Of a DNA stretch of 64,000 nt, positions 6,601 to 15,234 are shown in pieces (the first letter of the stretch is position 1; every line of letters begins with the position of its first letter). The position numbers and the translations under genes were made by a program. A model generated the notes under the pieces. That model made no database searches, was not told the origin of the DNA, and saw nothing but the letters and a program-made list of their open reading frames with translations. The DNA is from a bacterium. Lineage in GTDB: Bacteria > Patescibacteriota > Microgenomatia > UBA1400 > UBA12108. The stretch is taken from the NCBI GenBank assembly GCA_021788365.1, contig JAJYKS010000002.1, forward strand, positions 32,521 through 96,520, given 5' to 3'.

Positions 6601-7133
6601 TTGACGACAAAAAGGGGCAAAAGGCAACGGTAGCCGCAGTCATAAAAACCATCCGGGTGGTGGTGACCAAAACAAAGCAAGAAGAAATGGCATTCCTTCT
6701 TCTCGCTGACGAAAGCGGAGATATCGAGGCTGTTGTCTTCCCGAAGACCTATCGGGAAGCAAAGGAGTTTCTCATAGGAAATACCGTCGTCATGGCTAAA
6801 GGCAAGGTAGAGGAACGTGAGGATAGGTTGTCGTTTATTATAGACAGCATCTCGCCCGTAGTGGACAGCTCTAACACACCCGGTGTGAAGGGCGCCCACA
6901 CACCGGCTATGTCTGGCGCCAACGTCATTCGCGTTCCTGCAGGAACCAGTAAGGCTGTGCTTCTCGAGCTAAACAAACTCCTACAGGAAAATAAAGGAAG
7001 TGACGAAGTGACACTCGTCTTCGAGAATAGTCACGGCTCACGCGAGCTCAAGTTGCCGTTTGGTATCAAATTTTCCGACAAGCTCAAGGCCGAGATTGTC
7101 ACGCTCCTCAAAGTCGAAAAAATCAAAGAGTAA
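3666..7133 (+). CDS. dnaE: DNA polymerase III alpha subunit
   Basis: PHP-domain N-terminus (HLHVHTQYSLLDGL...ITDHGSMYG), polymerase core and a C-terminal OB region; 1155 aa. Confidence 0.92.
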   Translation: MALDFTHLHVHTQYSLLDGLSKDEDILEACKSYGMDAVAITDHGSMYGVIHFYNVLRAGGVKPIVGVEAYYTAGSRTDRSREFKTHHILLLAKNLTGYHNLLKLVSIAHLEGFYYKPRIDWETLEKYHEGLIATSGCPQGEVPWLLQKGEVAKAEERLKAYLELFGDDYYIELQRHDGLEDLLKPLNEQLLALSRKYGVPIIATNDVHYVHADDARAQDALLAIGTRSTLEDKNRFTMIGSPTYYLKSKEEMADLFADLPEALTNTRKIVDKVDLTIPTGKMIYPKFPVPTGETPESFLRKMVAEKLPSRYSDADKAIHDRINYELDVICTKGYASYFLIVQDFINWAKTHGVRIGPGRGSAAGSIVGYILRITSINPLQHGLQFERFLNPQRPSPPDIDVDIADVGRDRVIEYVTEKYGVDRVAQVITFGTMEAKAAVRDIGRVLGMPYSEPDHLSKLIPFGSDLSGALSSVPELAELYKNPKYKELIDLAKKVEGVARHSSTHAAAVIIADAPLTNYTPVQRDAKEGKITTQYDMYALDLNVKPDAVGLLKMDFLGLRNLTILQNAVNLVQKERGVRVDLSGLALDDKLVFDMISRGETTGVFQMESAGMRRLAKQMRPNLFSDIVALIALYRPGPMALIPDFVKGKLQPDSVKYLHPDLQPILGETYGIIVYQEQVLKIANVMAGYSLGDADILRRAMGKKSVETMNKEHKKFISQAVKLNYSEAIAEKVWSFVEKFAGYGFNKAHATSYAMIAYQTAYMKAHYPVEYMTALMSAESGNDDKMALSLEECRTMGVVVLPPDINCSQANFDVEKNEKSLDKRAIRYSLTAIKNVGTAAIDNVLLERTGGGQFKSFTDFVARVDNQKVNKKVLESLIKVGAFDAFGKRAVMLDEIERIRAKVGKTAAQKNSNQGGLFDTLAAEEVSMIDDWQSKKEEFTNRELMEMERELLGIYLREHPAMKSLKSIRNEWTTMLADIDDKKGQKATVAAVIKTIRVVVTKTKQEEMAFLLLADESGDIEAVVFPKTYREAKEFLIGNTVVMAKGKVEEREDRLSFIIDSISPVVDSSNTPGVKGAHTPAMSGANVIRVPAGTSKAVLLELNKLLQENKGSDEVTLVFENSHGSRELKLPFGIKFSDKLKAEIVTLLKVEKIKE

Positions 7134-9504: not shown

Positions 9505-10752
9505 CTACTTTACAAACACGACGGCCGTAGGGAGCAATCTTCCTGGTCCTACCTTGTATCCGCCACCATACCAGAGGGCGCTACTACCCCCTCCGTCGAG
9601 GTTAAGTGCCTGCTCAAGACCGAGAGTTTTCAAGACGTGTGCCTCGTCGACGACGCTTGCACCCAAAACATGGCCGATAACGGTGAGACTACCCTTAACA
9701 CCGATAAAGCCTTTTGGTCCCTTTACCATCTGGTGTGCCTCAACACTTCCTGGGTCAAAAGCGATGTTGCCGCCAACAAGGAGGAGTGGATGGTTTGCCA
9801 GTGCGCCGGTTGCCGCAGAATCGACCCCCCAGTCAAGTGTACGTCCATAAAAATGGAGTGACGAGCCATACGCCGAAAAAAGCGGTACCACGCTGTAGAC
9901 GTTGTTTGCGGTATTCAGGGCATGGTGGGTGCGACCGTTATAGGCAAGGGTATCGAAACTATTTGTCTTACCCTGGCAGCTGCTGTAGTCTGGGGGACAA
10001 AAATAGGCACCATTTATACCGGCAAATCCGCCGTTCCGGGTAACATAGTCGGCTAGGGATAGTACCGGGCAGTTGTCACCACAATCCGAGTCAGAGGCGG
10101 TATCAACAATCACCTTCGGACTATCGGCAACCACCATCACCACCGTATAGGTACCCGTATCGGTCACGACTGATTGGCGGTAGAAACCAGGGCCATGGAG
10201 CGTGTTGTCTGTCGGCGCGTTGGCGGTAGCTGTAACACTCGCCGCCTGCTTCGCGATGAGGCCCGCAGCCGTACTCTGTACCTTAGCGGCTGCACTTGCC
10301 GCGCTCTCGTACTGCTCTTTGCCGAGGTCAGCCAGGTACTGAGCGAGGAGGCTGTCGAGGCCTGCGGTAGGGATGCCTTGCTTGTTGAGGTCTGCCACTT
10401 GGTTAAACATATCGGCGCCATCTGCATAGGTCTTCTGCATAACAGCGAGGCGGGCGGAGAGGCTCGCATTCTTTACAACCTGATCCTCCTGCTGCAGCGC
10501 TGCAAGCTCTGCTGCTTTGCCGGAGAGGTCATGCGCCGTAGTCTGCGCCGCAGAGACCTCGGCGACCATTACCCGTTGCTCCCCGTACATACCCCAAAGG
10601 GTAGTCCCGAGGCCTCCAATAATCGCGAGAAGATAGGCAGTGATAAGCGCGCGAAACGCAAAACTGCCGTAAAAGCGGAAAAACAGCACACGCACCGAGC
10701 CAAAGAGATGTTTCATTAGGATAATACTATATACTATCCCTATGCCGGACAA
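9505..10752 (-). CDS. Membrane-anchored protein with coiled-coil and C-terminal phosphodiester glycosidase (NAGPA/DUF2233-like) domain
   Basis: N-terminal TM segment, Ala/Gln-rich coiled-coil, and C-terminal 'LNLDGGGSSALWYGG' motif. Confidence 0.5.
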   Translation of the reverse strand: MSGIGIVYSIILMKHLFGSVRVLFFRFYGSFAFRALITAYLLAIIGGLGTTLWGMYGEQRVMVAEVSAAQTTAHDLSGKAAELAALQQEDQVVKNASLSARLAVMQKTYADGADMFNQVADLNKQGIPTAGLDSLLAQYLADLGKEQYESAASAAAKVQSTAAGLIAKQAASVTATANAPTDNTLHGPGFYRQSVVTDTGTYTVVMVVADSPKVIVDTASDSDCGDNCPVLSLADYVTRNGGFAGINGAYFCPPDYSSCQGKTNSFDTLAYNGRTHHALNTANNVYSVVPLFSAYGSSLHFYGRTLDWGVDSAATGALANHPLLLVGGNIAFDPGSVEAHQMVKGPKGFIGVKGSLTVIGHVLGASVVDEAHVLKTLGLEQALNLDGGGSSALWYGGGYKVGPGRLLPTAVVFVK

Positions 10753-13534: not shown

Positions 13535-13864
13535 ATGGCAAACTCAGCGACACATAAAGAAGTGACATTCAAGGTAGGCGACACTGTCCGTGTTCACCAG
13601 AGCATCAAGGAAGGGGAGAAATCCCGTATCCAGGTGTTTGAGGGTGTCGTCATCGCCATCTCCAAAAATGGCGAGCCCAGCTTCACCGTCCGCAAGATTG
13701 CAACGGGAGGTATCGGTGTTGAGAAGATTTTCCCCCTAAAGGCTCCCGTCGTTGACAAAGTCGAGGTCAAGAAAACTGGCTTTGTCCGTCGTGCAAAGCT
13801 CTACTACCTCCGCGATCGCATCGGCAAGAACGCCACCAAAGTCCACGAAGCCAAAACGGCTTAA
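13535..13864 (+). CDS. rplS: 50S ribosomal protein L19
   Basis: [29 protein letters not shown]...[10 protein letters not shown] matches bL19; start taken at the in-frame ATG at 13535. Confidence 0.85.
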
Positions 13865-13881
13865 TCGGTAAAATACGAGCC

Positions 13882-14187
13882 GTGACTACTGAGTTTTACA
13901 ACGAACACAAGGGAATTGCAGAATTAGTAGAGGTTGCCCTCCAAGATCTTGCTGCGGAAGCCTTTATATCGCTCGTCGATACGGCTGGAGGTCCAGACGT
14001 AGCTAACATAGTAGCTGATACATTTGTGCGAGAATCGACACAGCCGCTAGATGAGTTGTCTGTTACTGATTGGGGGTTGAAGCTCGACAATGAGCTTGAA
14101 AAATATTCGAGAGTAGACGCGCAGACGATTGAAGCAGTAAATGTCGCCTTGACGGCCTGGGACGAGACACACTTCGGACGCGACTAG
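13882..14187 (+). CDS. Hypothetical acidic protein (101 aa)
   Basis: ORF only. Confidence 0.35.
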   Translation: MTTEFYNEHKGIAELVEVALQDLAAEAFISLVDTAGGPDVANIVADTFVRESTQPLDELSVTDWGLKLDNELEKYSRVDAQTIEAVNVALTAWDETHFGRD

Positions 14188-14243
14188 GAATAAAGAATAA
14201 GCTCCTCTATTGCCATATTTCATGCTAAAATAACCAACTAGTG

Positions 14244-14324
14244 GGGCCTATAGCTCAGCTTTGGCCAAAGGCCAATCAGCCTATGGCTGAGGTTAGAGCG
14301 TCCCGACAAGTCGGGAGTGTCCTG
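14244..14324 (+). pseudogene. Degenerate partial copy of the 5' ~50 nt of tRNA-Lys, with a hairpin insertion in the D-loop and a non-functional anticodon arm
   Basis: GGGCCTATAGCTCAGCT (17/17 identical to tRNA-Lys 5'), then the insert TTGGCCAAAGGCCAA..., then GGTTAGAGC, a 4-nt-loop hairpin and GTGTCCTG. There is no T-arm or 3' acceptor. Confidence 0.5.
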
Positions 14325-14328
14325 TCAA

Positions 14329-14586
14329 ATGAAATATTGTCTGTACATCCTTCACGATTCCTCAAAAGATCGATATTACATTGGGCAAACAGCAAATCTA
14401 GCCGACAGATTAAAACGACACCACTCTCACCGTAGTAAGTACACAAAAAGTGGGAGCTGGTCACTCGTATACAAAGAGCTGTATAATACACGATCAGAAG
14501 CATTTAGGAGAGAACTCTATCTTAAATCGCTAAAGAATAAACAAAAGATTCGAGAGTTAGTGGGGGCCTATAGCTCAGCTGGTTAG
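14329..14586 (+). CDS. Small GIY-YIG nuclease family protein (COG2827/YhbQ-like)
   Basis: 'YCLYILHDSSKDRYYIGQTANLADRLKRHHS...SLVYKELYNTRSEAFRRELYLKSLKNKQK' matches the GIY-YIG/URI consensus. Its 3' end overlaps the tRNA-Lys 5' end. Confidence 0.7.
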   Translation: MKYCLYILHDSSKDRYYIGQTANLADRLKRHHSHRSKYTKSGSWSLVYKELYNTRSEAFRRELYLKSLKNKQKIRELVGAYSSAG

Positions 14587-14637
14587 AGCACCTGCCTTTT
14601 AAGCAGGGTGTCCTGGGTCCGAATCCCAGTGGGCCCA
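14564..14637 (+). tRNA. tRNA-Lys (anticodon TTT), no encoded CCA
   Basis: Manual cloverleaf fold: acceptor GGGCCTA/TGGGCCC, anticodon loop CTTTTAA, T-loop TCCGAAT. Confidence 0.85.
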
Positions 14638-14650
14638 CGGTAATAAAATT

Positions 14651-14723
14651 GGGCCTAACTCTCAATGGGTTAGAGCATCCCGCTCACGCGGGAGTAACCT
14701 GGGTCCGAATCCCAGTGGGCCCA
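14651..14723 (+). tRNA. tRNA-Val (anticodon CAC), no encoded CCA
   Basis: Manual fold; anticodon loop CTCACGC; acceptor and T-arm identical to tRNA-Lys. Confidence 0.75.
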
Positions 14724-14739
14724 CCGTGTGTATCCTACT

Positions 14740-14814
14740 GGCCTCATCGTCTAGCCTGGTCTAGGACAGCGGGTTTTCATCCCGCTAACTTGGGTTCGAA
14801 TCCCAATGAGGTCA
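14740..14814 (+). tRNA. tRNA-Glu (anticodon TTC)
   Basis: Manual fold; anticodon loop TTTTCAT; D-arm GTCTAG...AGGAC is typical of tRNA-Glu. Confidence 0.85.
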
Positions 14815-15234
14815 CATAATCGGAATTTTCGTCCTCTAATGCTTCAATTAGCTCGAAAGAACGGGATAAATCGGCAAATAAACTCGCGGGGATGCTATTG
14901 CAGCGCGCATCCGTGATTGAGGAAAATAGTCTCCAAAAGGACCACGATCGCAATAGTCGAGAGGATAAAATACGCCCAGATCCCGCGCTCGAGGATACTT
15001 TCCCATGCCTTTGCCACCTCAGCCGCGGAATTATCTGATACTTTTTTTACCTGAGTTGTACTGTTCACAACGCATAATACTACGACAAATAAGATAGTTC
15101 TATGTCCAAAAATAGTCTGAGTTATCCGTACTTGCGTGAAAGAGAACTTTGTGTGCATAATAAAAACAGATAGGCCAGGAAACTGTCCAAAATTATTGAC
15201 GGAAACTGACTTGCCTGGTACTATAAAGACCCGT

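Follow-up and report, generated by a model that had tools for sequence, protein, structure and literature searches.

The 64-kb window analysed here, by which we mean the whole 64,000-nt stretch of a Patescibacteriota contig, carries a tRNA-Lys/tRNA-Glu operon in which a small GIY-YIG nuclease gene is packed among derivatives of the very tRNA-Lys gene that it adjoins. The module is compact, lies entirely on the plus strand, and is flanked by rplS and an orphan open reading frame (ORF) on one side and by the atp operon on the other. It reads, in order, operon promoter, hairpin-bearing mimic of tRNA-Lys positions 1-51, GIY-YIG ORF, tRNA-Lys, pseudo-tRNA and tRNA-Glu. The mimic, a tRNA-Lys-derived leader at 14241-14324 recognized by alignment, repeat finding and k-mer counting, bears the hairpin TCCCGA-CAAG-TCGGGA at 14301-14316, a perfect 6-bp stem with a tetraloop where the tRNA would have its anticodon arm (positions 27-43). 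The ORF (14329-14586; 85 aa, ATG start, Pfam PF01541) is the sole gene between the two tRNA-Lys 5' repeats and runs at its 3' end into the intact tRNA, as the first-pass annotation of this DNA had reported; it has no stop codon of its own and terminates on a TAG in the tRNA-Lys D loop, with its last 8 codons lying inside the tRNA. The functional tRNA-Lys(UUU) occupies 14564-14638 (ARAGORN, TTT; Rfam tRNA, 69.9 bits) and is followed by a full-length tRNA-Lys pseudo-tRNA at 14651-14723 (Rfam tRNA, 39.2 bits; 3' 27 nt equal to those of tRNA-Lys) and by tRNA-Glu(UUC) at 14740-14815 (ARAGORN and Rfam), the final gene of the operon. The extent first given to the locus, 14244-14637, captures its core and leaves the pseudo-tRNA, a third tRNA-Lys derivative, outside.

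The leader comprises tRNA-Lys positions -3 to 16 (GTG plus positions 1-16), then 18-26, then 44-51, and overall the copy spans tRNA positions 1-51 when it is set against the intact gene at 14564-14638. The sequence GTGGGGCCTATAGCTCAGC at 14241-14259 is repeated at 14561-14579, and further tRNA-Lys matches are found at GGTTAGAGC (14291-14299), in the 3' part of the D arm at 14291-14300, and at GTGTCCTG (14317-14324). An identical 17-nt start had been noticed at the outset, and this 17-mer, GGGGCCTATAGCTCAGC, indeed occurs at exactly two sites in the 64 kb even with 2 mismatches allowed, and at none in 100 shuffles; the similarity is not limited to this common 17-mer and extends well past it. 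The 31-nt palindromic insertion in the D loop (14260-14290) is likewise real and folds together with the D-stem strands into a long hairpin (z = -3.8). Lacking a T arm and a 3' acceptor strand, the leader copy cannot form a canonical cloverleaf. Its anticodon arm, originally described as broken, proves to be replaced by the perfect hairpin at 14301-14316.

The same module lies between rplS and atpB in related genomes (loci L002, L003, L004-L009 and L161), with GIY-YIG genes whose products are 69-82% identical; L005, L008 and L009 come from the aquifer project PRJNA268031. In these relatives a -10 box is followed by GTGGGGCCTATAGCTCAG...GGTTAGAGCA, TCCCGACTTGTCGGGA, GTGTCCTG, 4 nt, the ATG, an ORF that reads into tRNA-Lys, and tRNA-Glu. 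We compared the window with L002, L003, L004 and L161, lineages of the same tRNA-Lys clade (Lys clade) among which fourfold degenerate sites are ~35-50% identical, that is, saturated, and the promoter region 5' of the leader is 21-47% identical. Across the same lineages the leader hairpin is 88-100% identical, GTGTCCTG is 100% identical, the spacing from hairpin to ATG is 12 nt in every copy compared, and the tRNA-derived 5' part of the leader is invariant except for lineage-specific D-loop insertions and 1-2 first-base changes in L004 and L161. The D-loop insertion measures 31 nt in the window, is a different 23 nt in L002, and is absent from L003, L004 and L161. The upstream copy had been taken to be decayed, the displaced original 5' segment left behind as a relic. 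This cannot be sustained, because the leader is nearly unchanged where synonymous sites are saturated. Since it is conserved, and since the same TCCCG...CGGGA hairpin recurs in non-functional copies of unrelated tRNAs in other phyla, the leader looks like a functional part of the cassette rather than a decaying relic. The window copy itself looks vertically inherited and not freshly inserted. As a separate observation, the 23-nt insertion of L002 contains TCCCGG-TAAA-TCGGGA, and hairpin insertions at the same D-loop position occur also in L017, L129, L020 and L015; this position looks like a hot spot.

The pseudo-tRNA downstream of tRNA-Lys repeats the theme. It carries the hairpin TCCCGC-TCAC-GCGGGA at 14678-14693 in the place of the anticodon arm, which thus has a 6-bp stem and a 4-nt loop (or 5 bp and 6 nt) and not the canonical 7-nt loop. 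Its 3' half is identical to that of tRNA-Lys. The copy scores 39 bits against the Rfam tRNA model, compared with 57-73 bits for real tRNAs, and is missed by ARAGORN. Homologues with an identical hairpin are present in L003 and L004, whereas L002 is without the pseudo-tRNA.

The ORF product matches PF01541 with E = 4.4e-14 and 53 bits (cut-off 22.6), its residues 2-74 covering profile positions 1-77 of 78. All elements of the GIY-YIG catalytic motif are present (the Tyr of GIY, the Tyr and Gly of YIG, the Arg and the metal-binding Glu), and Y6, Y17, G19, R27, H31 and E62 are invariant or at least 90% conserved in sets of 36 and 15 homologues. Homologues use the same ATG start, and the closest of them (69-82% identity) come from Microgenomates-type genomes of the Candidate Phyla Radiation (CPR). 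The family profile matches 1zg2_A (E = 1.8e-10), 1ywl_A (E = 1.4e-7) and, more distantly, SLX1 7cq2 (E = 0.008). A single domain within the ~80-110 aa range, nearest to BH0048 and EF2693, places the protein among the stand-alone UPF0213/COG2827 proteins; the catalytic domain covers all 85 aa, and an additional DNA-binding domain is absent. The C-terminal Asn motif is also missing from the window protein, as in the Slx1-like branch (PMC1564403). Among Lys-clade lineages, codon positions 1 and 2 are 78-84% identical versus 46-57% for position 3, and the ORF is thus under purifying selection. The NCBIfam model grpIintron_endo matched only residues 5-41 of the window protein, under its cut-off. 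A scan of viral contigs gave 9 partial N-terminal matches and no close relatives, and we rejected a phage origin; PADLOC gave weak matches limited to the N-terminal motif region, and a defence system was rejected likewise.

Relatives without the gene are found at the same chromosomal position. A metagenome scan with the tRNA-Lys core recovered CPR loci that have the same tRNA-Lys and exist in four states. Clean empty sites, consisting of promoter, GTG, tRNA-Lys and tRNA-Glu with an identical tRNA-Lys, occur at L059, L091, L086, L071, L073 and L104; a search for such empty-site alleles had been put forward as a check on the first-pass proposal. When the empty sites L086 and L071 are set against the occupied L002, the upstream ORF and promoter are common to all three and the difference is an indel of ~320 nt bounded by the tRNA 5' repeat. 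Presence and absence at one homologous site among relatives is the distribution expected of a free-standing homing endonuclease gene. Every complete occupied locus (further examples are L161, L137 and L156) has the tRNA fragment, and the tRNA-Lys to tRNA-Glu pair is found in every related locus that extends beyond tRNA-Lys, empty or occupied. Occupied and empty genomes interleave when ranked by the identity of L19, PyrG and AtpB to the window, giving a patchy distribution: for L19, the occupied L002 (79%) is followed by the empty L086 (78%), L104 (77%) and L059 (76%), then by the occupied L161 (74%), with the occupied L003 and the empty L091 both at 68%. Empty sites could also come from recombination between the repeats, and the polymorphism alone is no proof of insertion.

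Copy number varies as well as presence. L100 has two tandem 317-nt units, each made of the fragment, a CCCCG hairpin and the ORF, while L034, L035 and L050 hold tandem arrays of ORF and pseudo-tRNA. L022 contains a 120-nt repeat, 100% identical, that includes the first 104 nt of the ORF, and L029 has three 85-nt hairpin-bearing mimics of tRNA-Ala 5' of the true tRNA-Ala. Direct repeats alone can yield both such arrays and precise deletions. At L015 and L074, two different GIY-YIG genes are present at one tRNA, and divergent occupants of the tRNA-Lys site are found at L084 (a distant GIY-YIG gene), L133 and L129; in all, at least three GIY-YIG lineages reside at the tRNA-Lys of Microgenomates. 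Taken together, these alleles show a dispensable unit that has repeatedly colonized tRNA loci, been amplified and been lost.

Several of these loci have peculiarities of their own. In L084, at ~9640-9680 (tRNA-oriented), the fragment has a perfect 20-nt palindrome, CCTGCCTGCCGGCAGGCAGG, where its anticodon arm should be; the palindrome derives from a strand of the native anticodon stem and resembles the result of a fold-back. In L074 (Ga0100390_10122636), the usual GIY-YIG ORF terminates just 5' of tRNA-Lys, and a second, unrelated GIY-YIG gene lies between that tRNA-Lys and tRNA-Glu at ~190-450 (tRNA-oriented), flanked by repeated CACGTGGTAAACC-like motifs and not by TCCCG hairpins. Leaders that are free of any ORF precede tRNA-Lys in L167 (9931-10063), L106, L102, L169, L081 and L122. 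Five of the six consist of a tRNA-Lys 5' fragment with a two-hairpin D-loop insertion of ~65 nt, followed by a 30-50 nt spacer, and the sixth (L169) is rearranged and partly duplicated. Their alignment contains three compensatory pairs (GTCCC/GGGAC, GTCAC/GTGAC and GTCGCC/GGCGAC) and matches no Rfam family; these leaders are possibly derivatives of the cassette from which the ORF has been deleted, or a separate small structured element.

Association with tRNA genes extends far beyond the Lys clade. We scanned genomes with a peptide pattern built from 15 family sequences, ignoring tRNAs, and obtained 42 loci from CPR (Microgenomates-like, Terrybacteria, Moranbacteria), Bacteroidota, Neomarinimicrobiota/Fidelibacterota, Rhodohalobacter and others. 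About 30 of the 42 adjoin a same-strand tRNA, which either ends within ~60 nt 5' of the ORF or overlaps the ORF's 3' end. At least seven tRNA types adjoin cassettes (Lys, Met, Val, two Pro, Ala and Thr), in two geometries: either the 3' end of the ORF overlaps the 5' end of the tRNA (Lys, Met, Val, Pro-GGG), or the 3' end of the tRNA lies 2-60 nt before the ATG (Pro-CGG, Pro-GGG, Ala-GGC, Thr-UGU, Val). Nearly all of the 27 loci examined for the purpose contain extra partial copies of the adjoining tRNA, usually across the ORF from it; these correspond to the D-arm and T-arm/acceptor regions, with the anticodon arm mostly left out. Wherever an ORF reads into a tRNA or a tRNA-like copy, its stop is always inside, and at least 10 of the top 150 representatives of the family (2,692 clusters at 50% identity, E <= 1e-10) have R[NGD]VAQPG as their C terminus, which is what the 5' end of tRNA-Pro(GGG) gives on translation. 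The junctions of the repeats vary by clade, falling at tRNA positions ~31, ~43, 51 and 60. The GIY-YIG tree groups by tRNA type, and the Lys clade of Microgenomates is nearer to a Rhodohalobacter sequence than to other CPR sequences. Cassettes with pseudo-tRNAs only, and no real tRNA within 3 kb, occur at L034, L035 and L038, and in the Ala clade a terminator-like hairpin lies between tRNA and ORF. The first-pass suggestion that other GIY-YIG genes of this kind might abut tRNAs with the same partial duplication is thus borne out for at least seven isoacceptor types in several phyla. Its broader idea of a tiny tRNA-targeting element survives in part: a discrete unit, tied to tRNA genes of many types and with empty sites at tRNA-Lys, is what we find, and it is the decay and relic component that falls away.

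Some entries in this set call for care in their labels. L011 is labelled 'uncultured Pseudomonadales' against a CPR-like gene content, and L026, L028 and L034 (labelled 'Synechococcus', 'Burkholderiales' and 'Bifidobacteriaceae') fall in an otherwise Bacteroidota GIY-YIG clade; all four are probably mis-binned or mislabelled contigs. P0037, P0038, P0040 and P0117, at 166-214 aa, contain two GIY-YIG stretches each, which fits gene calls that run through arrays of ORF and pseudo-tRNA.

What joins these clades, besides the protein, is the hairpin. The TCCCG/CGGGA motif was counted 55 times within 350 nt on either side of the ORFs (35 kb) versus 10 times in the other 167 kb, a 26-fold enrichment, and it lies near the ORF in 33 of the 42 loci. 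When the perfect hairpins close to the ORFs are ranked by stem, TCCCG leads by a wide margin, whereas it is not among the top stems elsewhere. The stem base TCCCG/CGGGA is invariant and the loops vary, while pairs 6 and 7 covary (pair 6: A-T 32, C-G 17, T-A 3; pair 7: A-T 17, T-A 13, C-G 4). The hairpin stands for the anticodon arm of tRNA copies and, in some copies, for part of the D arm or T arm too; on which side of the ORF it lies depends on the clade, and in many cases it is found just 3' of the stop or just 5' of the start. We considered a conserved tRNA-like fold as the general rule for the pseudo-copies and rejected it, the hairpins often replacing D-stem or T-stem strands. In the 64-kb window the motif has 4 matches, versus 0.8 expected, of which two belong to the cassette, one lies at 6739 and the fourth coincides with the anticodon arm of a real tRNA-Arg; with so few matches, half of them in the cassette, a dispersed genomic repeat of the repetitive extragenic palindrome (REP) kind was rejected.

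A promoter-like -10 box, TAAAAT, can be read at 14226-14231 on the plus strand, 9 nt 5' of the leader's GTG, where a promoter consensus scan missed it; relatives, both empty and occupied, have TATAAT, TACAAT or TAGAAT at a comparable short spacing 5' of the GTGGGG start. A second promoter-like element, TGGTCA-18-TATAAT, lies inside the ORF at 14458-14487 (plus strand; 10/12 consensus matches), 76 nt 5' of tRNA-Lys in the window within a range of 76-84 nt, and would serve the tRNAs if it is active. It is kept in L002, L003, L004, L161 and L156, and the Leu codon of the ELYN motif at this site is fixed as CTG, a codon that is rare elsewhere in Lys-clade ORFs. No intrinsic terminator was found in 13850-15200. 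No integrase or transposase was found near the cassette, and integrase Pfam matches are absent within 6 kb on either side, where the neighbours are pyrG, rplS and the atp operon. Rfam searches of 14100-14900, at the gathering cut-off and at E <= 10, returned tRNA and chance-level matches only, and likewise only tRNAs in the relatives; intron, ribozyme and riboswitch candidates were therefore dropped. Of the surroundings we note further that the 101-aa ORF at 13882-14187, on the rplS side of the cassette, matched nothing in Pfam or PADLOC and lacks homologues in the related loci; it is either an orphan gene or no gene at all. In L002-L009 the module as a whole has the opposite orientation between rplS and atpB to that in the window, both orientations are represented among empty sites too (L059/L091 versus L086/L071), and weak inverted repeats (14128-14146 and 14830-14848, 79% complementary) bracket the window module.

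The unit that emerges from these comparisons is a cassette consisting of a stand-alone, minimal GIY-YIG gene (~80-90 aa) set against one end of a tRNA gene, with hairpin-substituted derivatives of that same tRNA on one or both sides. The family is widespread and apparently undescribed. On balance, we favor the interpretation that the window locus is one copy of a widespread, compact, selfish cassette that resembles a homing endonuclease gene and is harbored in tRNA genes, and we judge this to be somewhat better than an even bet; the details of homing we hold with less confidence. In such a scheme, tRNA genes would provide a safe, conserved and well-transcribed harbor, and the cassette would be transcribed from the tRNA promoter with the leader as the 5' end of the transcript. 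The nuclease, if active, would cut a naive tRNA gene or its edge, and repair of the break from the occupied allele would lead to gain, the tRNA-derived repeats serving as homology arms usable in any genome that has that tRNA. The same repeats would permit unequal exchange, giving arrays, as well as precise loss. The hairpin copy, useless as a tRNA, may be kept as a cis element, either a site for protein binding or immunity or a structure that flanks the mRNA at its ends, and co-transcription together with the promoter inside the ORF would keep the host tRNAs expressed. A bolder version, which we offer tentatively and think less likely than not, is that of a minimal autonomous mobile element of ~300 nt, of a class not recognized before, a bare GIY-YIG domain plus a hairpin-marked tRNA mimic, that spreads between tRNA genes and between phyla. 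Here the nuclease would recognize a structure, such as the TCCCG hairpin, a cruciform or the stem-loops of tRNA genes, in place of a long sequence, and the mimic would act as portable homology arms; if this is right, the unit would rank among the smallest self-mobilizing DNA elements known.

Several observations weigh against a selfish, homing cassette. The 85-aa catalytic domain has no separate DNA-binding domain, unlike characterized GIY-YIG homing endonucleases, and how it would cut site-specifically is not obvious. The resident tRNA-Lys is the same as the tRNA-Lys of empty alleles, and a nuclease that targeted the body of the tRNA could still cut the host copy. For the Lys clade, the GIY-YIG tree agrees with host relationships (as with L19, L002 lies closer than L003) and fits one ancient gain followed by losses through repeat recombination, without recent mobility; as direct repeats alone suffice for arrays and deletions, the window copy is most simply an old, vertically inherited resident. 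The clade-varying repeat lengths exclude a fixed target-site duplication, a candidate we rejected on the junctions given above. The position of the hairpin tracks the pseudo-tRNA and not the ORF, which a homing model alone does not explain, and no close relatives of the protein turned up in viral contigs. We also acknowledge that nuclease activity, its target, the role of the hairpin and transfer between sites are each inferred from sequence.

The strongest rival is a device that acts at the level of RNA, in which the tRNA-like leader and its hairpin are cis-regulatory or processing elements of an accessory nuclease gene co-transcribed with tRNAs. The hairpin would then be a translational operator or stabilizer bound by the protein, the gene would be accessory or domesticated and not mobile, and expression would be limited by RNase P, which in cleaving at the downstream tRNA would take the stop codon away. 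Conservation of the leader far beyond neutral expectation accords well with this proposal, as do the constant 12-nt spacing between hairpin and ATG in the Lys-clade copies, the hairpins just 3' of the stop or 5' of the start in many other clades, and the stops that always fall inside the tRNA or tRNA-like copy where the ORF reads in; fusion of a prokaryotic Slx1-like GIY-YIG domain to a TrmH tRNA methyltransferase has also been taken as a hint of a role in RNA metabolism (PMC1564403). Yet the cassette is dispensable, close relatives having a clean tRNA-Lys, and the hairpins also replace D-stem and T-stem strands, destroying the cloverleaf, so a tRNA-like fold is not the conserved feature. The side of the ORF on which the hairpin lies differs between clades, and tandem arrays and double occupancy are unexpected for a simple regulated gene in an operon. 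To our knowledge, moreover, all characterized GIY-YIG enzymes are DNA nucleases. We regard this explanation as unlikely, while recognizing that it partly overlaps with the one we favor, since a selfish cassette could use such control too.

Other explanations fare less well. A pair resembling a type III toxin-antitoxin system, with the nuclease as toxin and the hairpin-bearing tRNA-like RNAs as processed antitoxin or decoys, would accommodate repeated hairpin units beside a small nuclease gene (the 3 x 85-nt array of L029), the terminator-like hairpin between tRNA and ORF in the Ala clade, and the patchy distribution. It would not need repeats that derive from the local tRNA, as they do in every lineage; the cassette is always fused to the edge of a tRNA gene, most loci have only one or two units, and the protein has the fold of a GIY-YIG DNA nuclease, not of the known ToxN, AbiE or CptN types, with PADLOC giving weak, motif-level matches only. 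We consider such a pair quite improbable. Very improbable, too, is the scenario closest to the first-pass proposal, in which an element bringing a replacement 5' segment inserted a single time into the tRNA-Lys T stem and left the upstream fragment as the decaying, displaced original. The direct repeat of tRNA positions 1-51 around the ORF, and the promoter flank common to empty and occupied alleles, are what that event would produce, but conservation of the fragment where fourfold sites are saturated contradicts it, as do the same hairpin in non-functional copies of other tRNAs in other phyla, the presence of the hairpin in both upstream units of L100, and the cassettes L034, L035 and L038 that have pseudo-tRNAs only. 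A group I intron or another self-splicing RNA carrying the ORF within a tRNA gene merits thought because group I introns are common in the tRNA genes of Patescibacteria and some encode homing endonucleases (PMC13011429). The chance of this is negligible: no group I, group II or ribozyme model matches in 14100-14900 even at E <= 10, the non-coding part is just ~85 nt, and the functional tRNA-Lys is uninterrupted, whereas the reported introns sit in the anticodon loop and have HNH, not GIY-YIG, genes (PMC13011429).

Set beside known systems, the proposed selfish cassette shares features with several and coincides with none of those considered. I-TevI and the Seg proteins have a DNA-binding domain besides the catalytic domain. 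A precedent among them is T4 SegB, a GIY-YIG homing endonuclease encoded in a tRNA cluster, whose recognition site holds a T-psi-C stem-loop motif; like the cassette, it is a GIY-YIG gene among tRNA genes with a patchy presence among relatives (PMC2330249). SegB is a phage protein with a mapped 27-bp recognition site and has no tRNA-derived direct repeats, hairpin-substituted pseudo-tRNAs or overlap between ORF and tRNA, whereas the cassette protein is an 85-aa bare catalytic domain in cellular chromosomes. Integrase-type elements that target tRNA genes carry the gene for an integrase, of the tyrosine or serine class, and it is usually the 3' part of the tRNA that they duplicate. As in such islands, phages and integrative and conjugative elements, the insert here is bracketed by a partial-tRNA repeat with one copy in an intact tRNA; documented cases are kilobase-scale, for example a 21.4-kb island with a 44-bp repeat (PMC9897764). 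By contrast, the cassette measures ~320 nt, contains no tyrosine or serine recombinase, and in the window repeats the 5' part of the tRNA in a form that is hairpin-substituted and conserved. REP elements with their RAYT transposases, and IS200/IS605, offer another likeness, a small nuclease gene flanked by short conserved hairpins with an invariant stem base and a variable loop, but these are systems of HUH Y1 transposases with hairpins dispersed genome-wide, whereas the cassette encodes a GIY-YIG enzyme and its hairpins are confined to the cassette but for the two other matches in the window. With the tRNA group I introns of Patescibacteria the cassette shares the host phylum and a small endonuclease gene in a tRNA locus (PMC13011429); it differs from them in having no intron RNA, an uninterrupted tRNA, another endonuclease family, and an insertion at the edge of the gene with a duplicated tRNA segment.

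Among proteins, the cassette enzyme belongs with UPF0213/COG2827, the prokaryotic Slx1-like group (PDB 1ZG2 and 1YWL), with which it shares domain, size and the absence of an accessory domain; this stand-alone family has been classed as the minimal form of the fold (PMC1564403). The cassette subfamily (~2,700 clusters) differs from the group at large in being defined by its position at the tRNA edge and by the hairpin. In the literature we found no description of tRNA-gene association or mobility for UPF0213/COG2827, nor, in open-access full-text articles, of GIY-YIG genes flanked by tRNA-derived repeats.

Our findings have consequences for how this family and its hosts are understood. Stand-alone GIY-YIG proteins of the UPF0213/COG2827 type make up a large family for which structures have been solved but no role is established. 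A subfamily of ~2,700 clusters is now tied to a reproducible genomic setting, tRNA-gene edges, together with a hairpin conserved in cis, which provides a hypothesis that can be tested at the bench. The cassettes also confound the annotation of tRNAs and genes in metagenome-assembled genomes of CPR and Bacteroidota, since they give rise to pseudo-tRNAs, to tandem repeats and to ORFs that extend into tRNAs. If the cassette is mobile, it would set a new lower size limit for homing-type elements, and it would show a route by which such an element can enter essential, single-copy tRNA genes without killing them.

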